Shown here in pieces: positions 10,307 to 64,000 of a stretch of DNA of 64,000 nt (position 1 is the stretch's first letter; each line of letters opens with the position of its first letter). The notes beneath the pieces were generated by a model that was not told where the DNA came from, made no database searches, and saw only the letters and a list, made by a program, of their open reading frames with translations. The translations under genes were made by a program, and so were the position numbers. This stretch comes from Massalongia carnosa (lineage: Eukaryota), in contig OZ287077.1 of the NCBI GenBank assembly GCA_965645245.1, forward strand, positions 2,108,001 through 2,172,000, in the 5' to 3' direction.

Positions 10307-10921
10307 GTGGTGGTACCGGGAAAAACCTTTCTCCGACGCCTTTTCAACAGCAAAATCGGGCCCGCGCGCCCATTTATTCATATCAATTCTCACATAAAAG
10401 CTGATCTTTTATGGTGGCATCATTTCCTTCCATTATGGAACGGCATACACATTATTAGCCCTTCGAGACCCCTGCTCCGTCTCTGGACGGATGCCAGTGG
10501 GGACTTCGGAATCGGGGCATACATACTTCAAGGTGGTCAGACCACACACACATTGCCCGCTGAGCAAGTGGTTTCTGAACATTATACCACCAGGCTCAGA
10601 GCCAAACATATCAATGAGAAGGAGATGACAGCGATTCTGCACGCCATACGGCGGTGGCTCCCCATGTGCAAGGGAGCTCATCTCCTTCTTTATTGCGACA
10701 GCTTTGCTGTAATGTCCGGGGTCAAAAAGACCTCCATTCGAGGCGGGGCCATGCATCCCCTCCGGAATATCGCCATGATGGCAGCAATATATGACATTGA
10801 GATTGAACCACACTGGCTGTCTACCAAAGAAAATTTCTTAGCAGATTGGTTGTCCCGAGGACTATTTGGAAAAATCGCTGACAATTACCCCAACCTGCAG
10901 GGCATTTCATCGAACAAATAA
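10307..10921 (+). pseudogene. Ngaro/DIRS RT C-terminus and RNase H fragment
   Basis: GKTFLRRLF..DLLWW, LWTDAS, HINEKEMTAI, LYCDS, NFLADWLSR. Confidence 0.85.
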
Positions 10922-11946
10922 CGGCGTCACTCGCCCGCGACCCTCCAGAGACATGGTATAACGAGGTTCCGCTGGATCGCCGAGCAGCCAGATATTTATG
11001 GTGGGGCATAGCAATTAGGACTCGAGGGCTATACGATGCAGCCCGGAAAAGCTACACGACCCACTGTCAATTGGCAACGAATTTCCCTCCCTTTCCAGCG
11101 ACAATTCGAAGCCTTTCGGCATGGATAGCCGCCCTGGGTCAGCGAGGGCTCCGCCCCAAAACCATCAAAAACTATTTAGCTGGAGTACGATCGAGCCAAT
11201 TGGACATGGGCCTAGGGGACCTGGAGGTCTTTCACCATCCAGTCCTAGACAGAATAATTGCGGGAATAAAACGAACGCACGGTGAACCAGAAAGACGAGA
11301 AAGGCTACCAATCACACGCAACATTTTGATAAAATTGCTACGGAAACTAGACACTACTAACGAGGTCCAGGCAACACTTCATGCGGCATACAGCATCGCA
11401 TTCGCTGCCTTCTTAAGAGCGGGAGAACTTACCTACAAACAGGGAGAAATGCAAGACTCCAGCTTCGATTCATGGCATTTAACTAGGAAATCGGTGGATC
11501 TACAGGCGGATCGAATAATTCTTTCCCTACTGTCATCCAAGACGGATCCTTTTCGAAGGGGTAGAAAAATTTATATCGCAGCAACAAACGACGAAGCATG
11601 CTCGATCACCTCCATTCGGAACTTGTTTACCCGATTCCCGAAACCAGCATCGTCCCCATTGTTCCAATTTCAGGACAAGGCCTTCACTCGTGAATATTTA
11701 GTGCAGGCCCTACGGAGTGGCCTCCGGGCAGTTGGCGTCCGAGGGAATTACTCGGGTCATTCGTTTCGACGGGGTGCAGCAACAACGGCCAAGAACTCGG
11801 GCTTGCTAGAGGAAGATATTCAAACCTTGGGCCGATGGAAAGCAGACTCGTATCAATTGTACATTCAGACACACCTGGACCAATTAATAGCGACCTCCCT
11901 TCGTTTTCAACGACCCCCCGCCACGTTCCGAACAGCACCACCGTAG
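10882..11946 (+). CDS. Tyrosine recombinase of the Ngaro/DIRS element (no ATG; frame open from 10882)
   Basis: AFLRAGE (R), SKTDPF (K), GHSFRRGAAT (HxxR), LGRW, SYQLY (Y). Confidence 0.9.
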   Translation, partial: QLPQPAGHFIEQITASLARDPPETWYNEVPLDRRAARYLWWGIAIRTRGLYDAARKSYTTHCQLATNFPPFPATIRSLSAWIAALGQRGLRPKTIKNYLAGVRSSQLDMGLGDLEVFHHPVLDRIIAGIKRTHGEPERRERLPITRNILIKLLRKLDTTNEVQATLHAAYSIAFAAFLRAGELTYKQGEMQDSSFDSWHLTRKSVDLQADRIILSLLSSKTDPFRRGRKIYIAATNDEACSITSIRNLFTRFPKPASSPLFQFQDKAFTREYLVQALRSGLRAVGVRGNYSGHSFRRGAATTAKNSGLLEEDIQTLGRWKADSYQLYIQTHLDQLIATSLRFQRPPATFRTAPP

Positions 11947-42326: not shown

Positions 42327-44893
42327 GGGAATCAATACCGGGACACCTCTTTTCACAACCTTGACACCCAGAAATGTCTCATCATCTTGGCTAGAGAATG
42401 AAACAGCCGCAATGCTAACAGCCGCCCATTTCACTACATTAACACCCCAAAGTAAGCTAACCAAATCGGGTATAAATTTCCCTCGGGCGGCAGAAATAAC
42501 TGGAGAAAACATGCTCGATTTGATGAATTCAGGTGTGTTTTAGATAGTCGTTTGATGCTTTCTCGATGATTGTTTCATTGAATTGGGCTTCATTTCGTGT
42601 TTACATTTGAAAGGCCTGGAGCAAACCCACTCCATCTACTTCAATCGATTGAATAGCTTCACCGGAGGCCACCCCTTCACCTTGTGACTGCCCTCTGCCC
42701 CGTCCTCGCCCTCGCCCTCGCCCCCGCCCTCGCCCCCGCCCTCGCCCCCGCCCTCGCCTCGGAGGCCCATTCAACACCTCCTCGACATGTTCGAACCCTG
42801 ATAACTCCCGTTGGGTAGAGTTATCAGCCTCGCGTTGAGCTCTTTCCGATTGTAAACGCATCGCGATTGACGGACGCCCTCGGGGTCGGGCTACTACCTC
42901 GGGGTCGCGCACCAATAACAAAGGATCGATGACATTTGGAGGTGGTGATTCGTGGCGATAATAAGCCCGATCAAGGGGCGCTGAAACCACCATTTGATGT
43001 GAATGTCGTCGCGCTGAAGCACATTGGGGGCCGGGCCAGAAAGTCGAACCTAATTGCAATAGAATTAGTACGTTTTCAGGGCTATTTCCTTCAGTTTATC
43101 AACTTTCCTGGATTTCATGAGCACATGGTAGCCCCATTGTTGCTCGAAATGCCCCGGTGCATAATGAAAGAGGGGTCATTTGATCCAAAAGACGTTCGTA
43201 CTGACTATGCACCTTCAACAATGCAAAAGGCGTGATATAAGCCCTTACATCGCTGTAAAGAGGTCTTCGTAGTCGGGTAGGAAAGCTCATTTTAGCCTCA
43301 TCCAGTTTTATCACGTACTCTTGATGCTGATTCTTTAGTAATAAATCAATGTTGTCAACCACCGTTTTGAGATCACCGGTAGAAAATCCCAACTGATGTT
43401 TCAAGACAGCATGGCCCCCCTCCACCCTAGAGGTAGCAATATTGTCGAAATGAAGAACTTTGTCGACGAATGCCTTGACGAATTTTCGTTTATATGGGGC
43501 TAGCCATGTGTCTACCAGATACTGCACTTCCGCTGAATGATCATGTGAATATGCATCATTCAGAGCGTCCCAATTGACCTCATATTCCTCTTCAGTCTTT
43601 GAATAAACCACCGCATGCCACATGCTTTCGAAGGCCATCCAGTCATCGTCGGAATGAGCACTATGTCTAAAACAGGTTTCCAATGCTCCTGAACATTCCT
43701 GTGAATATGCCACAAGCATAACAAATGACGTGTGTCAGGAAACACACTGTAAATAGCGGCCATGAGGCCAATGTCTCGATCGTTTACTACTACCTTTGGA
43801 TAGGAAATATGCAGCATTCGATAAAGGGTTTTTAATTGTTGGAGAAACCAAACATAGTCCTCTTTACGTTCTTGACGAAGAAAGGCAAACCCCACATAAA
43901 ATGAGGTGTTCAGGGCCGTTGTTCCCATTGTTGATATCAATGGTAATTTGTATATGTTGGTTTTATAGGTGCAGTCCATGATTAACACGTCGGGGTTGGT
44001 CATCAGGGTGCTTTGACAGGAATCTTTGCTGAAATAAAGATGTGTTATGCGATCGAGATTGTCTTTGAGATAAAACGAATTCCTACTGCAATTTAGTATG
44101 TAAAACATTGCATCTTCTCCGTACATACCAATGAGGCCGATTTAACTCCTGCATCAACGCCTGAATGGGAGTCAGTCGTCCTAGTGCCTTGTGTCGAATT
44201 TCCGCCTTCGCATTGTAAATATCTTGTCGCTTGAAAAGAGGATTATTGTCATTTATATCGTCAGTCTGACCGAGCCGAAGAGACGAAAGGATTTGACTCG
44301 GTTTCATTTGCACCTTCGTTGCGCGCACAATTTCATCAGCTATAGCTGGGGTGATAGCAAGTTTTCTGAGCGATGGATGAGAGCCTTCCACGGTAGCAGA
44401 GTGATTGTGGCCTGGATTTTGAATATCGCGAACTATCCATTTCATCGTCTTTAGACTTGACCACTACAGAGAAAGGACAGTCAATGGTCCTAGAGGTTCC
44501 ATGTAAGCGTTTCTGTCCTCGAGGCTGACGGTCCTTTCGTCCTCGATCACAACAAATATAACATGTGTCTATCAATCCAGTGGTCGCGCACTTTTTGGTG
44601 CGAAGCTGGCAGACAGCATACCCCTCAGGGCCTGCGTGTTTTTGCATGGCGACAAGAAGAAGATTGAGCGATCCATATGTTTCGTTCAGCATGTGGGTGG
44701 GAGGGGCAAGATTCATATTGATAGCTGATTGGTTAATGTGCATGCAATGACGAATGGAATGCATGCAAATATGAGTGCAGAAATCGAAGTTCCAGCTCCG
44801 GAACGGATAAACAATCCGATTTGGTTAGCTTACTTGGGGGGTGTTAATGTGGGTGTCAAGGTAGTGAAAAAGGGTGTCCCGGTATTGATTCCC
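42327..44893 (-). mobile_element. Mutator-like element (MULE) with long TIRs and 8-bp TSD CTTTGTAT
   Basis: TIRs begin GGGAATCAATACCGGGACACC; TSD at 42319-42326 and 44894-44901. Confidence 0.93.
42601..44716 (-). pseudogene. MULE transposase (FAR1-like, MULE DDE, SWIM-like, AT-hook), frameshifted
   Basis: CDRG..CPF..HNH; MDCTYKTN..LPL; NDRD; CLWH; TSRVEGGH; CTGAF..MGLPCAH; RPRGRP; (RG)n tail. Confidence 0.9.
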
Positions 44894-50591: not shown

Positions 50592-50638
50592 AATCACGTG
50601 ACGCTTCGCTCGGGCCCCGAGGGAAGCGTCACGTGATT
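50592..50638. repeat. 47-bp near-perfect GC-rich palindrome
   Basis: AATCACGTGACGCTTC-G-CTCGGG-C-CCCGAG-G-GAAGCGTCACGTGATT. Confidence 0.9.
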
Positions 50639-50673: not shown

Positions 50674-51985
50674 ACGCGGGTGACAAAAAAAATTTTACTC
50701 ACAAATTTTGACCCCACCAAACCATCAAAGTTTGACCCTTATTTGCATCGTGGCACCACACTATTATTATTGCTACTCCTACTACTATCAATAACCCGTC
50801 ATCGCACCGTCACCATCTATCACCGCTTGCAGCCCTTTCGGCATCTCAGCCACCTTGCTATTGATGAAATTTTGCGAAACCGTGGCCCACCCCTCATGAA
50901 TCAGTCCTACCGTGGTGGCCTCATCCCAATGAGGGAATTTGCGAATATACTGCTTGGGTGGCTGCCAGCAATTTTCAATAGGTGAGAGATCAGGAGACGA
51001 AGCACAGTTGAAATAGCTTTTCAACCCATTTTCTTCCTTCCATTTGCGTACGATATTGTTTTTACTAGTACCGTGCCCTGAATCACCATCTTCTTCCAGA
51101 CAGAAATCATCACCTCTGTCAAGCCACTGCTTGACGACAGGCTTCAAAATCTGATCAATATAGACCCTTTGACTCATCTTTTCATTAGTGTTGCCCGGAA
51201 CGTCGTATAAACGAATGTCTGACTTGAAATTGAGTCCCACAGCAGCCCAAGCATGCTTTTTTTTCAAGTCTTTTTCAGTTGATTCGTTCGTTTCTTGAAG
51301 ACAATCTTGACAGTATCGTTGACCCGGCTTGCGAATGATGCGAATTTTCCCCTGAGGCCCATAGCTATAATGCACCTCATCGCTGAATCGTACAGAAAAC
51401 CAGTCTTTATCATCAGGATATCTTTCTTTCATGACGATAGCCTATTCAAAACGACGTTTAGCCGTCGATTCGCTGACCCAGCCCTTTCTACATGCAATGC
51501 ATTTATGATAATTCATCGTACCCATAACTCTCTGAATTTTACGATCACTGCACTCCAGTCCCACCTCGTAGCCCAATTGAACCCACGTTAACCCGCGAGC
51601 CTCAATGCCTTCTGTCTCCAAAATACGCTCCATCTCTCGTATGTGTCTCGGGGTCACAATTGAATGACGTCCACGTGTTTCAGGAATGTCGGCATTGTGT
51701 CTAGTACGACTGGAATTTTCTCTTGTCAACATTTTCCAGCCAGTTTGTTTTGAAGTGCCGAAAACACGGAAAACATCTTCTTTGAAATAAGGAATCTTCA
51801 TCGCATCGCAAAACTCCACTGCACCCTGAATTTTGGCCCGTGTGGGGGTAGGATGATGGGTCTGAACCTTATGCGACTCCAAAGCAGGTGTGGTAGCTCT
51901 ATTCATGGCTGAATGATGGTGTATAAAATGTGGTGGTTGAAAAGGGGTCAAAATTTGTGAGTAAAATTTTTTTTGTCACCCGCGT
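50674..51985 (-). mobile_element. IS630/Tc1-like DNA transposon with perfect 42-bp TIRs
   Basis: ACGCGGGTGACAAAAAAAATTTTACTCACAAATTTTGACCCC at 50674-50715, inverted at 51944-51985. Confidence 0.92.
50788..51906 (-). pseudogene. Tc1-like DD37E transposase with one in-frame TAG (51442-51444)
   Basis: RGR and HTH-like N-terminus; FSDE, EEDGD, SPDLSPIENCW; 37 residues between the second D and E. Confidence 0.88.
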
Positions 51986-52488
51986 GCGAGGTCATATATC
52001 AATGTAAACACCCTTGTAATTTAGTTACAGCCTGGTGTGTTATTTATTAGCAAACATAGAAGAGATGGCCTCTAAGAGTCATTGAGAAGTGAGTTAATGT
52101 GTGCCTATATTTTCGAGATCAAAACATTATTGACCTTTTTGTGGGCAGAGAAAACAAGCCTGAAATGAAATGCAGTGGTCCATCTCTCATCTTCATCACT
52201 GTGAGGAATACTTATAAGATTTTATAAGCAAAGACTGTCTGCCATCTAAAAGCCACATATCAAAATTCTCTTCTCAAACGCATATCGAGTATAAGTTAGC
52301 TAGTTCACACGTCTAGAACGCACTTGCGCGAAAGTAGACCTCAAGGCGCTCAGTCCTCCACTTTCAAATCATAAATTACAGCTTCTCTCTTCACATTATT
52401 TGTTTCAGCTTCTATATTGCTGGATTTTTCCCGCCGCCCTACCCGTCCCCGGTCGCTCTTGCGCATCACCTCACCACGTCGAGCGTTT

Positions 52489-54925
52489 CATGCCTCAAGC
52501 ATCATCACTCAGCTGGTCTTCATGGTCTTCATGGTCTTTGTCCGACACCAGGTATTTATTTCATCGTGCCCCCCGACCTCCAAAATCGGCTGTTCTGCTC
52601 AGCTTCCCCTCCGTTCCCATCGTCTCTGACGACCTTTCTCTTCGTGTCCCTCAACCCTTCATCTTCGTATTTCCAACCCTCTTATTCTCCCACTTTCATT
52701 TTCGCCGTCCCTCCTTCACGTCGATCACCTATCGTCCACGCTCGTCGACTCTAATTTTCCCTGAACGAGTTTACAAGGACAGCAGCGAGGATCTACAGAG
52801 CTGGGTTAAGAACCTTTGGTATCGGTAAGGAGATGCTACTACTACTATCGTGGACTGGCGAAATCTGATCGAGGCTGACAGATATTGCGAATTCACTGGG
52901 AAGAATTCCGTCATGACTCTCAAGGAGATCTCTATCAACATCCTCTACGTCTTCTTCGACTGGATACTCTCCATTCGAAAAGGTCGGCTGAGTGCGGCTA
53001 GTACCCTGCAAACATACTGGAATTTTTTTTGCCTAGTGCGAAAGAAAGAGACTGGCTGTCTAGAGATCGACCCGCTTATCAAAAGCCAGATGTACGGGGT
53101 ACGAGAGCCCCGTTCTACGCCTCTATTGATTAACCAGTACTAGGCGAGACAACGGCTCGCTCTAAAGCATCGGTTAAGGACTGAGAAGAAGAAGAAGAAA
53201 CTTATCATGCGGGCCGAGGACGATTCGTCGAGATCGTCTTTGATCACGAGCGGCACCGTGTACAACTAGCCTTGATCATGCAGCTAGCCGGGATCACAGA
53301 CAATCGTCCTGCTGCTCTTTTGGGTGTGTGCTACAAAGATTTTAAGATCACCTTGCTTCCGGGTCTCAAAGGAGGGGAGCTTCCTCGACGGTTGATTGAA
53401 ATCGCATTCAAGAATACGAAGGGCTATCTAGGCGATAAAGAAACGTCCGTGTTGCCCTTTTGTGCTTTCTTCGTCGAGACGGACAGTTTCGCTGAACTAC
53501 TAACAAGTATCATAGAAACGAGTTCAGGATTCCTGACGAGCCTGACGAACCATGCCTGCTGCTTTGTCCTCATCTAAACCTACTCACTTTGATCTTTATC
53601 GATCAGGCCTTCGCCGCTCCCGAATTGATTTCTGCCGAACAGTATTCCGTCTCCGGATCCCCCCGGGACAGAAATAGCTGCCGTTTCTCCTTAAGGAAAC
53701 GATGCTACACGTTCTCCTCTTCCGCCGATCCGAATTCCCTGAACGGGGTTCGAATTTCGGACGCCAAAGCTCTGCCTGACAGTACTCTTCGATCACGGAT
53801 GAGAACCCTTGGAAGCGTCACCGGAATGAAGCTTCCCACCGGTTCATACATCTTTCGACGAGGCAATAGCGAAGCTCTCGACAACAGCAAGTGTGTACAC
53901 GACCTCTGTCAATTTTCTTTTGAGCTTTTTGCTGACCCTTGCACAAGCTTCATCAGCGAATCGCAACGGAATCTGATTTTGCAACATCACAACTCCACCG
54001 TGTTCTTAAAAAGCTATCTCTCGAGGTATATCACAAGTGATACCGGGGCCGCCTATCGTGGTTTGAAGCCGCAAACTGCGCTGATGCGACTCGCCAGTGG
54101 AATGAGTCGTAAGATTGATCGACGACGGCCTCGGAAGCTCAATGACGCCCAAAAAGCTCAGGTCGATCGTCACCCAGAGGTGAGACTCCTTTGCCGGAGG
54201 CAAAAGAAAATGTTCCAGTTCATCAAAGACAATTATGGACCCATCGCGAGCATGAAGGGGACATCAGTGTACAATAAGTACCAAAAGGCGTATCAAGCTC
54301 ATCGCAACATAAAACGGCGGCAGAGGAGGCTCTTTTACAAGAGGTCAAAGCGAGGTAAAAGAGGGAGCAGCCGGTGATCGACATTCAACGAAAGCTGAAA
54401 GGACTGCCGTCGGTAGAACTCGAGACGGCGAAGGCAGAGGATTACGTCTTCGAGGAGCGTGTCCGGGTCATCGATACCCTCCTCACCTTCGCGACGTCAT
54501 CCCCAGAGGAAGAGTGCGAACGGCGGGTTGAAGCGATCAAAGTTTTGACAGCCCTTTGTCGCTTGCAGGAAGGCAAGCGTCCACGTCGTTCAAAACTTTC
54601 CGCGCCGGTCGTCAAGGAACGGCATCTGACACCACCATCTGTCCTCGATCCGGCCTCTCTTTCAGACTCCATCTCGATTGAATGCGAACCCACTCAATGT
54701 ATCTTTTGCATCTTTTGCCTCGGCTGTGTAGCGCTAGCCACCGAGACACGTCTGAAGTCTTTCCGCAGCCGCTACGATCTGAAAAAGCGCTTCCATTGTA
54801 AACACCTTCGTCATCACCAAGACGGTCATCCGATCGCATGCCCTCATCCAAGGTGTCAAGATGTTTTGACAAGCACAATGAACTTGCAGAACCATGCGGA
54901 GTTGGTTCACAAGACGCCCACTTGA
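52489..54925 (+). pseudogene. DUF3435 tyrosine recombinase (Starship captain type) with C-terminal C2H2 finger; intron-containing and frameshifted
   Basis: FFDW....STLQTYW; RHRVQLALIMQLAGITDNRPAALL; NTKG; LCPHL; YIFRRG; QRNLILQH..S.VF..SYLSR; MSRKIDRRRP; CPHPRC...LQNHAELVH. The start codon is uncertain. Confidence 0.82.
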
Positions 54926-55627
54926 CTGTCATTCGGCCTTTGCGTGCAGATTGGTTATATAAATTCCTTTTGAGATCACCACCTTACGAGCGGCCATAAT
55001 AGGTTGCCTCCCCATAGAAAAGCTTCGGTTCGGCATCAAGCTTGACTAATTCCATACCCTTCTGCTGTTTTCGATGCGTCGAATGGCAAGTCTCATGACC
55101 ATCTCAGGTTCTTATAAATTCTTCGCTCCTTGTAGCCTATAACTACTACATCATCATCAGCATCAACTCTCGTATCGCTCTAGCTCCCAATTTCGGCTCC
55201 TCTACTCCCTCGCAACATCCCATCTTCAAAATCATGGCTACCGTACCATTTGCAACAGCGACCGAATGGAATAGCCTAGGAGTATACGTACAATGTCTTC
55301 TATCTAAAGACTCATCATCACGGACCAGATCATCGGCCATGGACAGGTCAGACTTGGGTCGCTCACTTCGGGGGCAATCGTGGGTATGCTGACCTTACCT
55401 ATCAATCACTGTATTCTTACGAAGGATAGCTGCCTCCATCTAATATTCATCTAACATGGCTGCCTAAATCATACATGTACCGTGTTATAGATGGAGAGCA
55501 TCTCGGCGCAACCCACATGAAGTCAGAGATAATGGTTTTATCCTTGGGGCCACTATCTAGACCGTTATGTACAATAGTAGCAATATTAAAAAAACGATAT
55601 TAAACTCCTGTGAAACATGATATCTTC

Positions 55628-55730
55628 AGCCAGAGAAAATGCCCGAGGCTTTAAAATGACTGGGGCTTTTTAGTCACTATCCCTTTTCAATCACTACTCC
55701 CTTTTAATCCCTACTCTCTTTCAATTCCTA
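55628..55730 (+). repeat. Direct repeat copy 1 (~100 bp) flanking the NLR
   Basis: Matches 62032-62131: AGGCTTT.AAATGACTGGGGCTTTTTAGTC..CTTTTCAATCACTACTCCCTTT..CCCTACTCTC. Confidence 0.85.
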
Positions 55731-55875
55731 TTTGATCCGATTTGGCACAGCGAGACAAGATGCCAAGAATTTTGAAACTTCCCCCATACGCCTTGCGCCC
55801 CTGCGCCCCTTACCTTCAAGTTCCCTCTCAACGGAACGATAGAATTTCAATTCCATCATTGCCAGCAAGATTAAA

Positions 55876-58800
55876 CTAGCCTTCAGACGGTATTGATCTG
55901 ATCTCATTTTGACGTTTGAATATATCATCCAGCCTTGTCCTGCCTAGAATTGTCATACCTGGCACAGGTAAGCCGCTTGAGCCCCGCAGATACATCTTTT
56001 CGGCCTCGTTCATCTTGCCTTGGATTTTATACAAATTTCCTAGATTGTTGACTGTGGCAAGCGTTGATGTGTGATCAGGACCCCAGGCCTTTTCGTATCC
56101 TGTCAATGCCCGCAGATACATCTCTTCAGCCTCGTTCATCTTGCCTTGATCTGTATACAGACTTCCTAGATTGTTGACTGTTGTAAGCGTTGATGTGTGA
56201 TCAGGACCCCAGGCCTTTTCGTATCCTGTCAATGCCCGCAGATACATCTCTTCGGCCTCGTTCATCTTGCCTTGGATTTTATACAAATTTCCTAGATTGT
56301 TGACTGTGGCAAGCGTTGATGTGTGATCAGAACCCCAGGCCTTTTCGTATCCTGTCAATGCCCGCAGATACATTTCTTCGGCCTCATTCATCTTGCCTTG
56401 ATTTGCATACAGAATTCCTAGATTGTTGACTGTGTCGAGCGTTGATGTGTGATCAGGACCCCAGGCCTTTTCCTTTCCTGTCAATGCCCGCAGATACATT
56501 TCTTCGGCCTCATTCATCTTGCCTTGATTTGCATACAGAATTCCTAGATTGTTGACTGTGTCGAGCGTTGATGTGTGATCAGGACCCCAGGCCTTTTCGT
56601 ATCCTGTCAATGCCCGCAGATACATCTCTTCGGCCTCGTTCATCTTGCCTTGATCTGTATACAAAAGCCCTAGATTGTTGACTGTGTCGAGCTTTGATGT
56701 ATGATCAGGATCCCAGGCCTTTTCCTTTCCTGTCAATGCCCGCAGATACATCTCTTCGGCCTCGTTCATCTTGCCTTGATCTGTATACAAACTTCCTAGA
56801 TTATTGACTGTTTTGAGCGTTGATGTGTGATCAGGACCCCAGGCCTTTTCGTATCCTGTCAATGCCCGCAGATACATCTCTTCGGCCTCGTTCATCTTGC
56901 CTTGGATTTTATACAAATTTCCTAGGTTGTTGACTGTGGCAAGCGTTGATGTGTGATCAGAACCCCAGGCCTTTTCGTATCCTGTCAATGCCCGCAGAAA
57001 CATCTCTTCGGCCTCGTTCATCTTGCCTTGATATGCATACAGACTTCCTAGATTGTTGACTGTGGCGAGCGTTGATATGTGATCAGGACCCCAGGCCTTT
57101 TCGTATCCTGTCAATGCCCGCAGATACATCTCTTCGGCCTCGTTCATCTTGCCTTGATCTGTATACAAACTTCCTAGATTGTTGACTGTTTTGAGCGTTG
57201 ATTTGTGATCAGGACCCCAGGCCTTTTCGTATCCTGTCAATGCCCGCAGATACATCTCTTCGGCCTCGTTCATCTTGCCTTGATCTGTATACAGACTTCC
57301 TAGATTGTTGACTGTTGTAAGCGTGGATGTGTGATCAGGACCCCAGGCCTTTTCGTATCCTGTCAATGCCCGCAGATACATTTCTTCGGCCTCGTTCATC
57401 TTGCCTTGGATTTTATACAAATTTCCTAGATTGTTGACTGTGGCAAGCGTTGATGTGTGATCAGGACCCCAGGCCTTTTCGTATCCTGTCAATGCCCGCA
57501 GATACATCTCTTCGGCCTCGTTCATCTTGCCTTGATCTGTATACAGACTTCCTAGATTGTTGACTGTTGTAAGCGTTGATGTGTGATCAGGAACCCAGGC
57601 CTTTTCGTATCCTGTCAATGCCCGCAGATACATCTCTTCGGCCTCGTTCATCTTGCCTTGGATTTTATACAAATTTCCTAGATTGTTGACTGTGGCAAGC
57701 GTTGATGTGTGATCAGGACCCCAGGCCTTTTCGTATCCTGTCAATGCCCGCAGAAACATCTCTTCGGCCTCCTTCATCTTGCCTTGATCTGCATACAGAC
57801 TTCCTAGATCGTTGACTGTGGCGAGCGTTGATGTGTGATCAGGACCCCAGGCCTTTTCCTTTCCTGTCAATGCCCGCAGATACATCTCTTCGGCCTCGTT
57901 CATCTTGCCTTGATCTGTATACAGACTTCCTAGATTGTTGACTGTTGTGAGCGTTGATTTGTGATCAGGACCCCAGGCCTTTTCGTATCCTGTCAGTGCC
58001 CGCAGATACATTTCTTCGGCCTCATTCATCTTGCCTTGATTTGCATACAGAATTCCTAGATTGTTGACTGTGTCGAGCGTTGATGTGTGATCAGGACCCC
58101 AGGCCTTTTCCTTTCCTGTCAATGCCCGCAGATACATCTCTTCGGCCTCGTTCATCTTGCCTTGATCTGCATACAAAAGCCCTAGATTGTTGACTGTGTC
58201 GAGCGTTGATGTGTGATCAGGAACCCCGGCCTTTTCGTATCCTGTCAATGCCCGCAGATACATCTCTTCGGCCTCGTTCATCTTGCCTTGCTCTGTATAC
58301 AGACTTCCTAGATTGTTGACTGTTGTGAGCGTTGATGTGTGATCAGGACCCCAGGCCTTTTCGTATCCTGTCAATGCCCGCAGATACATCTCTTCGGCCT
58401 CGTTCATCTTTCCTTGATCTGCATACAGAATTCCTAGATTGTTGACTGTGTCGAGCGTTGATGTGTGATCAGGACCCCAGGCCTTTTCCTTTCCTGTCAA
58501 TGCCCGCAGAAACATCTCTTCGGCCTCGTTCATCTTGCCTTGGATTTTATACACATTTCCTAGATTGTTGACTGTGTCGAGCGTTGATGTGTGATCAGGA
58601 CCCCAGGCCTTTTCGTATCCTCTCAATGCCCGCAGATACATCTCTTCGGCATCTTTCTGCTTGCCTTGTTCTTTTGAAAAATAGCCAATAGCATGATACG
58701 AAGGATATAGTACCTGTTCCCATCTCATATTCCTTTCGAGGTTTTGATGTTTTTTTCCAATCCAGAAGTGAACATAACTACAATGACCAGCCAGTCGTTT

Positions 58801-61150
58801 TCGATGCAGCCAGTTTGCTGAACTGCCAGTGGAATGACATGCGGAACCGATTACAGAAACTGCTAAAGAAGCTATCTCGTCGTTAGAGGTTAGATTCAAG
58901 TGAAAACACCAGTCATGTATAATTGGATGAATCGCATAAGATGAGATCTCATATCGTGTTTCTATCAAGGAGTAATCCAGCAGTATTTGAATCTTCTGTG
59001 TAAAATCAAATTCCGTCTTCATGCTACATGAAAACCAGATAGGTAATGTCTCTTTTGGGATAATGCTCTCGTCAAGTACAGGTGCGAATAAAGAATACCA
59101 TAAATCTGAATGATCGAGATATGCAAACAGATTAAGCAATTTTGCAGCGCTCGCGTCATTACGTTGCACATATACATAGGAAATGGTGTACGTAGATAAA
59201 ATGCTACGAGGATAATCTTTTAATCGGGTCGTTTTGTTGTTGTGAAGCTTCTCCCAAGTCTCTTCATAGTATCGAATATAGTCGTTCACACTTGTAGTCG
59301 TTCCGTGGATATAGGAGCCTGCATGAGCAAGTGCAAGTGGGAGACCACCCACTTTCTCGACGATCCTATCAAGGCCTATATAATGCTTAGTAAATTGGAT
59401 TAAGACTGTTGCTTAAATTTCATTACCTTCAACTGATTGTCCTATCCTGCATCGTAATACTTCTGCTCCTTGTAGATCGCTCATCCTTCCAAGTTGCCGG
59501 TCCTGCCCGTGTTGTCGAAGCTGTCGTAATCGGCTTGTGATTAAAATAGAGCCGTGATCGGCTTCCGGGAAAAAATCTTCCACATCATATGATTGAGGAT
59601 CATTTACCTCCGGAGAATTATCACGATCGACATTATCGAAAATGAGAAGCCATTGATTGTTTTCATGTTGATTGAACCAAATAAGAATATTGTGAATAAT
59701 TTCATCTAGCTCTTCACGGGATGTTTTAGAGACTTTTCTACATGAATCCGGAATCTGATCTGGGGGTAATTGCCGAGCAATCTGTGCAAGACTTTGACGT
59801 ACACTTTCCTTACTATCGCCGTTTAACCAAAAAATAGAACTGAAAATCTTCTGTGATCTTTGAGCGAACTCGATTGCTAGCTGAGTCTTGCCGGAGCCGC
59901 CCAGTCCGTGTAAAACGAACACCTTCCGGCGATTCTCACGAGTTGGTTTGGGAAAAAGGGTATTCTTGAGGTCATTCATTTCCTGATCACGAGCTATGAA
60001 TTTGGGTACACGGGGCAAGCCTTTCAAACTGAACGGCACTTTATATGAACCACTATCTATTCAAGGATTTAGTAACTCAAGAATTATCAAGCAAACATTA
60101 ACGCACATTCTCGTGTTGAAAGATTATTTCCACAAAGCTTCATTTGTTTCATCACGCTTTCCAAAGCCACATAGCGGGTTGTGGCGGCCATGATCTTGTT
60201 CTTCTGTGCTGCATCTTCGAGTCCAATACTCTCAAGCCCATGAGAAACATTGAAACGAAAGTAGCGATTCCCATCGTCGAGATCGGAATGCGCTCGATGA
60301 AAAGACTCCGCTGTTTTTTCTGTCTCTGTTGCAATGTCTTTCAACGTTTTTGCAATCTCGAAGAGGCTTGAGCCATAAGAATCCAAGGATGGAGCACCCG
60401 TACCGATAGATATCAGACATTTGATGTTTCCCTCAAGCGCTTCATCTGACCACACACTTTTGGCCTCGTTCCAAAGATGTGCGACAGGATTGTTAGCCCC
60501 CACAGCCCCATCGACAAACTCTTCTTCAAACTGGCCAATTTTAACTGGATCAAAGAAGGATGATGCGGCAGATGTGGCTCGAGCTGCCTCCCAAATTCGT
60601 GTCTTATGGTACATATCTAATGATCCTCGAGAAGGATAGGATGTGAAAAGGACTGTGTCGGCAGTCTCTTTGCTCAGAGCGCATACAAATCTAGCTTTCA
60701 TTAGTATCACTAGAATTATACGTGTAAATGTAACTTCCGAAGCACTAACACCTTGCATTGCTGATTCTCTGATCCTTTGAGGAGAGCATTTTCCCCTGCA
60801 TTCTCCTTCCGCTTTACGATTTCTCGAATCGACCGTTCCAGCTCTTCCGTGTCGAATCTCCCCTGCACGTGTCCGTTTATTGTGACACGTTGCCGCTTTT
60901 TTTTAAACACTTGATCGAACAATGCGACATAGGAATCAATACATTCATCGATATTCATCTCAAGACGACCTAGCATGATAGCAATCAATCCACCGGTACT
61001 TGTCCCTCCGATCATGTCGAAATACTCGCATGGCTTCGGCGGCGCATCCGGATTGATGATCTGCATCAGTCGCTTGAGGATTGCGAGTGACGATAGCCCT
61101 CGCACTCCACCGCCATCAAGAGATAATAGACATAAATCTTTATCTGGCAT
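55876..61150 (-). CDS. Fungal NLR, patatin-like phospholipase + NB-ARC + TPR (PLP-1-like), 4 exons, 1704 aa
   Basis: join(61150-60750, 60690-60107, 60056-59427, 59375-55876) with GT-AG introns is in frame; DGGGVRG, GTSTG, DGA; GLGGSGKT, LLIFDNVD, GGLPLAL; TPR array. Confidence 0.93.
55985..58660 (-). repeat. 21 full plus 1 partial 126-bp (42-aa) TPR repeats with high internal conservation
   Basis: Consensus NEAEEMYLRALTG[YK]EKAWGPDHTSTL[DTAK]TVNNLG[SNIL]LYxxQGKM. Confidence 0.97.
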
Positions 61151-61884
61151 GATAGAAGGTCCTAGCTTTCTTCGACTTATACAACTAGCCTGGTAGGAAT
61201 GTGCAGAGGCTGGCTTTGGAAATGAGTGGTATAGAAAGCATCAGTCAAGCTGTTATTGTTGCGCGGCTGAATGATATCCATATAAGGCTGAAAACGTCTG
61301 TAAACAGTTACTACTCATCCAGGGTGCGTACAAGCTAGTAATGCAACTGCCGACAGCACATTAAACTCTTTTCGGTTTAAGTCGGATGACGTGTTTATTG
61401 CTACTAATAATTACCCTAATCGTGCCAAACCACTTTCGGAATGGAAGAGCATCCCTTATCGACGATGTTGTAAAGAAGTATGAGGTGCGTCCACGACTTC
61501 AGCGAGATATATCTTTTCGTCTCCTTTCGCATGCGCTGTTATCTCGCGGTATCGATGTTCGGCCAGGCTGGTGATGTAAGCGGATTCAGTCTTGTCGGCG
61601 TAGATTCGGATCGCGACACAAGTCTCCCGGAATACTTCATAGATGGGATTTGACGCCTTAGCTGCTTCAAGAGCACAGTTGACTTTTCTGATCAAGACAT
61701 CCGTAGGCTGGTTGGCGAAGAAAAGAACCGACTTGGAAAAAGCGAGTGAAAAGGAAAGGCAATCAGTAATTAAAGGAGGCATAGAGTACAATTAGATTAA
61801 TCTAGATTTTTGCTTTAATTTTGGTGTGTGTTGTAATAATTTTATTCTACGAGTTTGATCCCACGAGTTATGTCTCCTTACGAA

Positions 61885-62305
61885 ATTTATTCCCCCAGGG
61901 CTTTTGTCCCCTCAGGGACTTTATTTCCCCAGGGCTTTTATTCTCCTAGGGCTTTCATTCCCTCGGGAAACGAAAAGAGTAGGGAAACGAAAACCCTGGG
62001 AGAATAAAAGCTCTGGGGAAATAAAGTCCCTAGCCAAGAAACACCAAGGCTTTGAAATGACTGGGGCTTTTTAGTCCATATTCCTTTTCAATCACTACTC
62101 CCTTTCAGTCCCTACTCTCGGCTAATTCCTACTCACTTCCAGTCCCTACTCCCTTTCAGTCGCTACTCTCTTCCAGTTCCTATGCTTTTTGAATTCCTAC
62201 TTCCTTCCAGTCTCTACTCTCTTTCAGTCTTCACTCTCTTTCAACGTCTATAATCTTTCAGTCCCTACTCTCTTTCAGTCCCTACGCTTTTTAAAGCCCT
62301 ACTAG
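61885..62305. repeat. Complex repeat: ~43-bp inverted repeat built of ~17-mers, direct repeat copy 2, and a 17-bp tandem array
   Basis: IR 61913-61957 versus 61989-62032; copy 2 at 62032-62131; (CTACTCTCTTTCAGTCC)n continuing to ~62305. Confidence 0.85.
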
Positions 62306-62673
62306 TCCTCAACCCCCTTTAGTGATAATATTTAACTTTAACTTTTATGAAAAGCTTCATTCGCGAGACGCTGGAGGGGGGTGGAGCGGTGATGCTCAAA
62401 ATTCAAATTGCTAGCGGTTCGGGAATTGGTTCTTTTCGGCTGGTACTCGGTAAAGGTAGCGGGGAAGTCAGGTGACAGTCTTTCTTTTAGTTATAGATAC
62501 AGTACTAGGCCAAAAGTCTGCGGCCCCGCACCCCACCAACATTTTAATCATTCTATTCAATCAACAATCAAGCACGTCATGATTGCTGAAATGTCTTGAA
62601 ATTTTACATAATGATTACATATATACTAAACAATAATTCCCCCAAAAGTTGATTTTTAATATTTAGTATAGAG

Positions 62674-64000
62674 TGTCATGGAGTGACTGGGCACCTGCCA
62701 GTTAGTTCATTGAACCAACCTTAGCTGCTTGAACGAAGCACTAGCCGGCTAGCCGATCCGAAAGGAACTAAGCTTAATCCGGTTTAGTCAGGGCAAAGGT
62801 AAGTGTTCCGGCTGAAGGTAAGTGTTCGGACTGTCAATAGTGTCATAGCGATAGTTTCATGCCAGGGACTTGGGAAATTGGATCAACGGCTGGATTGGGA
62901 CTGGTTCCGTTCGCCAGAGTCTTATACTCGCCCACGTTGGATTTTCTGTTTCTTTTCTCCTTGTCGAACGTCTTGTCCACCTAGCTAGACAATCAAGTAA
63001 TACGTTTGCACCATCTGAATTTCTACCTGACCTCGCACCGTGACACTACGTTCGACCAGCCTATTCACCTGGTGCATCATCATCATGTCTATCAACCTCG
63101 ACCCCCCCACCGCCGTTTCCAATGCCAACGAACTGAGCAGTGCCGTGCAGCAACACCCACAAGCATGGCTCGATTTCCTTCTTCGCATCACCAACTTCGC
63201 GTCCAACGCTCAGGAAATCATCACCACCTTAGAGACCGACAAAGCAACCGCACTATCTTCCCTTGAACAGGCTAACGTCACTCTGACCGAGAATTCAATC
63301 ACCATGGCCGCCGGACAGGCTGTTCTAGACGAACTCCGCACCAACCTTGCCGATGCATCCTCGCAGTCTAAATCACACCGCTCCACTAAGCATCCAGACC
63401 CCTCTCTCTTTGGTGGCGACAAAGCAGAACTTCGAGGATGGATGACACAACTCCGGATCAAGCTAAACATCAACAAGGACCATTATCCCACCGAGCAAAG
63501 CAAGCTGGCTTATGCGCTAAGCCGCTTGAAGGAAAAAGCTTTGGAACAAATGCAGCCGTACCTAGAAAGAGATGGAAACATTGCCCTTGTCGATATGAAC
63601 GCGTTCTATACCAAACTGCAATTGGCCTTCGGTGATCCTGATAGAAAAGCAACAGCACAAAGGGAACTGCGACAGCTTCGACAAAAGAATAAAGAGTTCT
63701 ACTTATATCTATCCGACTATCAGCGCCTCGTTCCCGACACAGGCTTCGACGATGAAGCCAAACGATCGATTCTTCTGGACGGTCTCAGCGATGAGTTAAA
63801 ATCCGCTCTAATCACGGTAGACCTACCCGCTTCCCTGGATGACACTATACAAGTCCTCCAGAAAATCGATAACCGATTCCGCTCCGTTCAAGCATCGCTT
63901 CGCAAACCATTCACGTATGGCGGCACTTCCCGTTCTTCCTCCGCTCCGTCTACTCCGACCACCAAGACCTCTTCCAGTCCTACCACCCCCGCTCCTCGAC
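62674..64000 (+). mobile_element. Ty3/Gypsy element H: 5' LTR (62674-63045) and gag, running off the window
   Basis: LTR TGTCATGG...CCGTGACA; PBS ACGTTCGAC complementary to LTR GTCGAACGT. Confidence 0.85.
63085..64000 (+). CDS. gag: Gypsy H Gag (partial; absent from the ORF track because no stop is in the window)
   Basis: MSINLD...KHPDPSLFGGDK..LAYALSRL..AFGDPDRKATAQRELRQLRQ, homologous to Gypsy G Gag. Confidence 0.88.
   Translation, partial: MSINLDPPTAVSNANELSSAVQQHPQAWLDFLLRITNFASNAQEIITTLETDKATALSSLEQANVTLTENSITMAAGQAVLDELRTNLADASSQSKSHRSTKHPDPSLFGGDKAELRGWMTQLRIKLNINKDHYPTEQSKLAYALSRLKEKALEQMQPYLERDGNIALVDMNAFYTKLQLAFGDPDRKATAQRELRQLRQKNKEFYLYLSDYQRLVPDTGFDDEAKRSILLDGLSDELKSALITVDLPASLDDTIQVLQKIDNRFRSVQASLRKPFTYGGTSRSSSAPSTPTTKTSSSPTTPAPR

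Follow-up and report, generated by a model that had tools for sequence, protein, structure and literature searches.

A 64,000-nucleotide stretch of the genome of the lichen fungus Massalongia carnosa (GenBank assembly GCA_965645245.1, contig OZ287077.1, positions 2,108,001 to 2,172,000; the whole stretch is called the window here) contains a pseudogene of the captain-type DUF3435 tyrosine recombinase that heads the giant transposons known as Starships, next to an intact receptor gene that joins a patatin-like phospholipase (PLP), an NB-ARC domain and a tetratricopeptide repeat (TPR) array. The pair belongs to a unit repeated at many loci of the same genome, in which all long copies of the captain are broken and the receptor is under purifying selection. 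The history that probably lies behind it is that a derelict Prometheus-like Starship captured the receptor, its captain died, the block spread by segmental duplication and ectopic recombination, and selection kept the receptor. An earlier prediction made from the letters of the window alone (the original prediction below) had described the start of a Starship-like giant transposon with its cargo; it missed the multicopy family and what appears to be the death of the captain before the spread. The features on which the finding rests are the following:

52751..54925, plus strand: DUF3435 tyrosine recombinase (captain-type) pseudogene with a C2H2-like C-terminal tail, placed by profile match and homolog alignment
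55876..61150, minus strand: intact PLP-NB-ARC-TPR receptor gene encoding 1704 aa, with introns at 60749-60691, 60106-60057 and 59426-59376
55983..58672, minus strand: 21 exact 126-bp (42-aa) TPR repeats of the receptor, 19 of them distinct as protein, with variable positions 9, 22, 29, 32 and 33

The DUF3435 profile matches the captain in three reading frames across 53185-54922 (E 5e-17, 2.6e-60 and 2.5e-10), and alignment to a full-length homolog spans 52751-54922. The N-terminal region of about 120 aa, which aligns to residues 31-153 of the homolog, is a putative core-binding domain. The catalytic residues are present, with the R in an NRP motif (53302), the K in NTKG (53413), a YIFRRG motif (53847), the H in LQHH (53979) and the Y in KSY (54009), and the frame is interrupted by four frameshifting lesions (a 28-bp deletion at 53223, -1 at 53642, -2 at 53736 and -1 near 54321) and two stops (53675 and 54356). 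The best 40 weak matches include no upstream exon that could encode roughly the first 30 residues, and their absence is not counted as a lesion because the N-termini of homologs vary. The captain is the first recognisable gene in all copies, preceded by a 151-aa frame without a Pfam match and a Copia long terminal repeat (LTR). Its best named matches are in Teloschistales and Heterodermia.

The receptor is composed of four exons, and removal of three GT..AG introns yields a single open reading frame (ORF). Profile matches comprise Patatin (E 2e-15 and 5e-8), NB-ARC (6e-7) and 22 copies of TPR_10; the DGGGVRG, GTSTG, DGA, Walker A and Walker B motifs are intact, and the NB-ARC exon has 81% identity to a Pseudocyphellaria protein, which, like the named matches of the captain, indicates a lichen-forming host. 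Receptor and captain lie on opposite strands, tail to tail, with about 950 bp between them. The original prediction had named both a DUF3435-type recombinase pseudogene with R, K, xxR, H and Y residues and an intact PLP-NB-ARC-TPR gene adjoining it: the former is borne out by the located motifs, the mapped lesions and the hidden Markov model search proposed at the time, and the latter by the full-length ORF with its lipase and P-loop motifs kept. The joint observation of captain and receptor is confirmed as real and far beyond chance.

Copies were counted in searches of the assembly (52.16 Mb in 25 contigs, designated C1, C2 and so on, with the window at C11:2108001-2172000) and in stretches fetched from it, and all counts are lower bounds. 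The receptors fall into two types. Of the 21 type-A loci, 20 retain the 5′ end, about 96-100% identical to that of the window, and one consists of the array only; captain sequence is present at 19 of the 21, as 16 long copies and three short 3′ pieces. The 10 type-B receptors (about 91%) have different flanks, with no captain in the 2-4 kb compared, and resemble type A only in the coding region and about 60 bp. Type-B loci, five of which lie on C22, share flanks of their own over at least 2 kb on each side and thus form a second amplified unit. The Starship-like unit supplies most DUF3435 and most patatin matches of the genome. The outermost 350 kb of contigs hold nineteen of the 21 type-A loci (expected about 33%) and nine of the 10 type-B loci (expected about 43%), an enrichment that is descriptive only because the copies are not independent. 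An older, diverged relative at C12:172.0-175.5 kb has the 3′ end of a captain (68-71%) adjoining the downstream cargo known from the unit (77-85%); a receptor was not detected in between, and this pairing indicates that captain and cargo have long been linked. The two arms of C7 match each other almost exactly in inverted orientation, around the unit and at distances of up to more than 400 kb from both ends, which may reflect a real duplication or an assembly join.

Comparison of the copies separates the fates of the two genes. Stops or frameshifts are present in 16/16 long captains (more than 1.7 kb covered). The -1 frameshift at 54321, relative to homologs, is common to all 15 captains that cover the site, and in the ITG[N/S]RP motif D or E occurs in 16/16 captains where G occurs in 18/18 motif-bearing homologs among 31 compared; most other lesions are private or confined to small groups. 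Selection was tested on 12 linked independent copies, from which the near-identical sisters C19, C13c and C7R and copies missing either gene had been dropped, and omega, the ratio of non-synonymous to synonymous change, was corrected with a mutation spectrum from 4-fold sites. The captain has an omega of 1.15 (p 0.27), rising to 1.38 for shared variants, and a neutral stop count; the first 770 codons of the receptor have an omega of 0.63 (p 5.5e-4), falling to 0.41 for shared variants. Stop variants number 17 in the captain versus one in the receptor (receptor p 3e-8), and the uncorrected contrast of 18 to one gives p 7e-6. This shows that the captain evolves neutrally and that the receptor is under purifying selection. 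Given the lesions common to the captain copies and their neutral evolution, the captain would already have lost its function in the ancestor from which today's copies descend. Of the 5′ ends of 30 receptors, 23 have an intact ORF that reaches the repeats (986-2462 aa), some of these breaking within the array, five break early and two are unmappable owing to insertions or rearrangement. Fungal NLR (nucleotide-binding oligomerization domain-like receptor) families are thought to be limited by repeat-induced point mutation, which is not evident here, since C>T changes have no CpA preference.

The TPR array differs in number and order of units even between sister copies whose flanks are at least 99% identical, with 21 units in the window, 18 in C19 and 21 in C13, and 22 versus 24 in the two C7 copies. 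Arrays hold about 3-39 units, and 442 exact repeats (293 type A and 149 type B) were compared, none being common to the two types. The five variable positions carry 1.1-2.5 bits each and form 164 distinct codes among the 442 repeats, the other 37 of the 42 positions being nearly invariant. The ratio of non-synonymous to synonymous diversity (piN/piS) at the five sites is 3.05, a descriptive value because the sites were picked post hoc for their variability. The pattern matches the concerted, diversifying evolution known for fungal NLR repeats of high internal conservation (PMC4986451, PMC13449251), which are alike in their near-identical repeats, variable number, few hypervariable sites and association with transposons; the diversity described there is mostly across alleles, whereas here it extends across many paralogs of one genome. 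Helical spacing and these same studies suggest that the five positions may line a binding groove, and the repeats match the Podospora TPR arrays of PDB 4Y6W and 4Y6C.

Under the favoured history, the part of the unit inside the window would represent the leading end of a derelict Prometheus-like Starship, roughly 25 kb long, by which the receptor had been captured. The block would have multiplied mainly through segmental duplication and through ectopic recombination between chromosome ends rich in transposons, and then been eroded by nested transposons. Selection has retained the patatin and NB-ARC parts, and unequal exchange has reshuffled the 126-bp repeats, so that copies differ from one another in the number and order of their units. 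Flanks of the window, C19 and C13 copies are 98-99% identical, including remnants of Tc1, Mutator-like element (MULE) and helicase sequences, and the nested-transposon junctions of partial copies on C9, C13 and C17 are shared with C7. Mutations inside the 5′ LTR, namely a 23-bp deletion and an insertion of about 190 bp, are common to copies, and four-gamete incompatibility rises from 0.17 for sites less than 100 bp apart to 0.39 between captain and receptor (permutation p 0.002, 159 sites). The copied flanks, the shared junctions and LTR mutations, and the distance-dependent incompatibility therefore fit segmental duplication with ectopic exchange. That the C12 relative lacks a detected receptor and that types A and B share the gene body only suggests a later insertion of the receptor behind the captain.

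Several points weigh against this history. True ends were not found, which leaves captain homology and cargo type as the grounds for a Starship origin, and eroded ends would conceal genuine transposition. The shared frameshift lies past the catalytic domain, so that the truncated captain might once have worked. For the selection contrast, the uncorrected comparison of synonymous and non-synonymous changes is marginal (0.67 for the captain versus 0.47 for the receptor, Fisher p 0.08), and the correction of omega draws on 4-fold sites of the same two genes. Singleton receptor variants have an omega of 0.78 (p 0.16), not significantly below neutral, and selection on the receptor may thus be weak per copy.

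Among alternative histories, non-autonomous transposition would have had another captain move the dead-captain element in trans into transposon-rich sites, the ends being erased later and the youngest duplicates alone being segmental. The long collinear core common to the copies, their rather star-like tree, the start of several copies at the same LTR and the frequent insertion of Prometheus-family elements into transposons (PMC11162782) all speak for it. However, the mutations that copies share inside the LTR indicate that it was copied along with the unit and not targeted afresh, no termini are common to the copies, and the other DUF3435 loci compared, on C2 and C5, have stops and only 27-35% identity to homologs of this captain clade (loci on C3 and C21 lie outside the comparison); mobilisation in trans is on balance unlikely. 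The sequence of events implied by the original prediction, an active Starship burst followed by independent captain decay, agrees with the private or small-group nature of most lesions and with the retained catalytic residues. It conflicts with the lesions common to all copies, with the lack of a purifying signal in shared captain variants and with the description of Starships as low-copy elements (PMC11162782), and is accordingly quite improbable.

The two genes could also be chance neighbours: rearrangement within a transposon island would have brought a receptor next to a stray DUF3435 relic, and the two would never have moved as a Starship. The receptor gene does change context by itself, since its two types share so little beyond the coding region, and DUF3723, a gene not obligatory for a Starship, was found at three loci genome-wide (one at a distance of about 50 kb past the partial copy on C20) and at none inside the fetched units. 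The old captain-cargo linkage at the C12 relative and the presence of cargo types typical of Starships (PMC9156397) argue against chance, which makes this explanation rather improbable. A copy number inflated by the assembly of several individuals or haplotypes would be suggested by the nearly identical C7 arms, but is very improbable: most copies differ at 3-4% of aligned sites and in their nested transposons, telomere repeats cap the contigs represented in the first 100 of 989 matches, and the runs X1 and X2, from two studies, contain the whole stretch with variant contigs, although one of these runs may be the source sample. Presence or absence of the unit in the runs X21 and X22 was rejected as evidence; the whole stretch is missing from both, transposons and the helicase included, which makes them uninformative and probably of other species.

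The extent of the unit was read from its flanks and from the remaining features of the window:

50674..51985, minus strand: Tc1/mariner transposon with 42-bp perfect terminal inverted repeats and a DDE_3 domain, truncating the left side of the unit in the window and two sister copies
51987..52750, plus strand: remnant of the 5′ region of the unit, of which about 1 kb more is kept in other copies
55643..55730, plus strand: copy 1 of an 88-bp direct repeat (87.5% to copy 2), the pair flanking the receptor gene
61914..62031, no strand assigned: 49-bp inverted repeat (hairpin) upstream of the receptor, present in other copies too
62044..62308, plus strand: copy 2 of the 88-bp direct repeat, merging into a 17-bp tandem array
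62373..64000, plus strand: nested insertion that splits the unit, made up of a short repeat, a Gypsy LTR (62674-63045) and gag, with the unit resuming 7.5 kb on, outside the window

The left boundary had been predicted at 51987-52489 and does not hold, as 8/8 non-sister copies aligned there share sequence further upstream and 51987 abuts the terminal repeat of Tc1. In other copies about 1 kb more of the unit is present before a 119-bp Copia LTR is reached, past which the copies diverge. At 62372, nested elements interrupt the window copy and 7/10 aligned copies run straight on, so that both 51987 and 62372, sharp at first sight, were rejected as element ends because other copies share flanks beyond them. 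The predicted extension past the window was found: the unit resumes at C11:2177927, corresponding to window position 69,927, and the similarity to an independent copy, on C12, ends near 90,400. The latter was also rejected as a right end, being common to the window trio and C12 only, with a Crypton next in the trio and earlier breaks in other copies. Without nested elements the unit length is estimated at roughly 25 kb. TTAC was rejected as a 5′ target repeat, as it falls within the 119-bp Copia LTR and also terminates a separate Crypton-like element. Three copies were followed beyond Copia in search of the true 5′ end, but the sequence there either belongs to unrelated transposons or matches nothing, and no direct repeats, shared termini or empty site were found at either end in the part of the copy flanks that was read, where the ends are ragged and lie in nested transposons. 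The unit is therefore Starship-like rather than a delimited Starship; of the Starship-like start originally proposed, the captain, the PLP/NLR cargo and the extension stand.

Past the window the cargo consists of two inverted DUF7924 genes and a gene with ankyrin repeats and an SsdA_C-type deaminase in pieces, followed by a Crypton-like element and a fungal kinase. A search of a single cargo ORF in Atlas gave only weak C2H2 look-alikes. Pieces of ankyrin and SsdA_C/OTT_1508-like deaminase lie between the inverted DUF7924 genes at L066:4593-5980 and L070:4469-5904, and more ankyrin/deaminase copies, with no captain detected, occur on C9, C12, C13, C17 and C18. The Crypton-like element (NDC10_II and GCR1_C, 3.6 kb, C11:2198441-2201904) sits at TTAT sites, and in several copies it also occupies the region of the 5′ LTR. 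Near units there are at least two copies of a second NLR-like family, which combines NACHT, a long array of 96-bp repeats, DUF7104 and ankyrins (C12:142.7-147.2 kb, L065, and C19:1516-1520 kb). To the left of Tc1, a GC-rich block at window 36.5-50.6 kb includes an SNF2 remnant (38.1-39.5 kb, minus strand) and an Upf1-like AAA_11/12 helicase (45.4-48.7 kb, minus strand) and is split by a MULE (42327-44893); it is 98-99% identical to C19 and partly C13, and its SNF2 part also occurs at C11 284-288 kb. The segment at 49.9-50.5 kb recurs three times at 83%, on C1, C15 and C16, in two cases at a distance of 10-20 kb from where the contig begins, and its 185-aa frame has no Pfam match; a near-perfect 47-bp palindrome follows at 50592-50638. 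At 10307-11946, an RNase H frame precedes a 354-aa frame that resembles a tyrosine recombinase by eye (HSFRRG; no Pfam match at E 0.01), possibly a DIRS/Ngaro-type element.

Among known systems, the closest definition is that of Starship-like regions, in which DUF3435 lies beside PLP and/or NLR genes without target-site repeats (Gluck-Thaler et al. 2022, PMC9156397). The unit is Starship-like by this definition, and it differs from the Starship-like and Derelict regions with PLP and NLR cargo of that study in having PLP and NLR fused in one gene, in its amplification within the genome and in the selection on its receptor. The best captain homologs (56-68%) are unnamed or lichen-fungal, and the nearest classified ones belong to family 5, Prometheus (Gluck-Thaler and Vogan 2024, PMC11162782), of which one fam05 cluster is represented by the close homolog Zasmidium cellare 30718 (50% over the query piece). 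This likeness is by homolog matches, and in contrast to Prometheus captains the gene is a pseudogene in all copies, at 19 loci in one genome and with no termini or direct repeats. The Tangerine Starship of Xanthoria (PMC13486527) is alike in its lichen fungus host and in a captain with PLP and NLR cargo, but is a single-locus element with clean ends, from a family mostly without a core-binding domain and confined to Lecanoromycetes. The present captain, with its retained N-terminal region and its non-lichen relatives, Dothideomycetes at about 50%, does not agree with the Tangerine family. The patatin-NB-ARC-TPR architecture is that of Neurospora PLP-1 and Podospora HET-Z1 (PMC12881547), with about 31 paralogs here versus single allelic loci there. 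In PLP-1-type receptors, cell death is triggered by a ligand, through surveillance of SEC-9. The receptor probably works like PLP-1; by this analogy, the TPR array would bind a protein ligand, the NB-ARC domain would oligomerise and the patatin lipase would kill the cell. A Peltigera pangenome preprint gives 1-14 captain-like genes per genome, with 'NLR' and 'patatin' absent from its main text, and a Xanthoria preprint (10.1101/2024.08.16.608140) proposes a role in lichen-fungal non-self recognition. No dead Starship unit amplifying an NLR within a single genome was found in the literature searched, which excluded most subscription papers and some supplements.

Taken together, the parts of the unit are of known kinds, and its unusual feature is the combination of copy number, a dead-before-spread pattern and a selected, diversifying receptor. 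One unit dominates the DUF3435 and patatin matches of the genome, which contrasts with the low-copy picture of Starships (PMC11162782), and points to a route by which mobile cargo outlives its vehicle and expands. It is possible, as a tentative extension, that the dead hull has served as an amplification cassette of the host, with selection for more and different receptors having carried it to at least 13 chromosomes and with about 30 patatin-NLRs, with the codes described above, serving as a germline repertoire that screens partners, parasites or non-self fungi in the thallus. In each copy the dead captain acts as a neutral clock next to a gene under selection and so provides an internal control for selection on paralogous immune receptors, and the receptors constitute a defined family for probing non-self recognition in lichen fungi.

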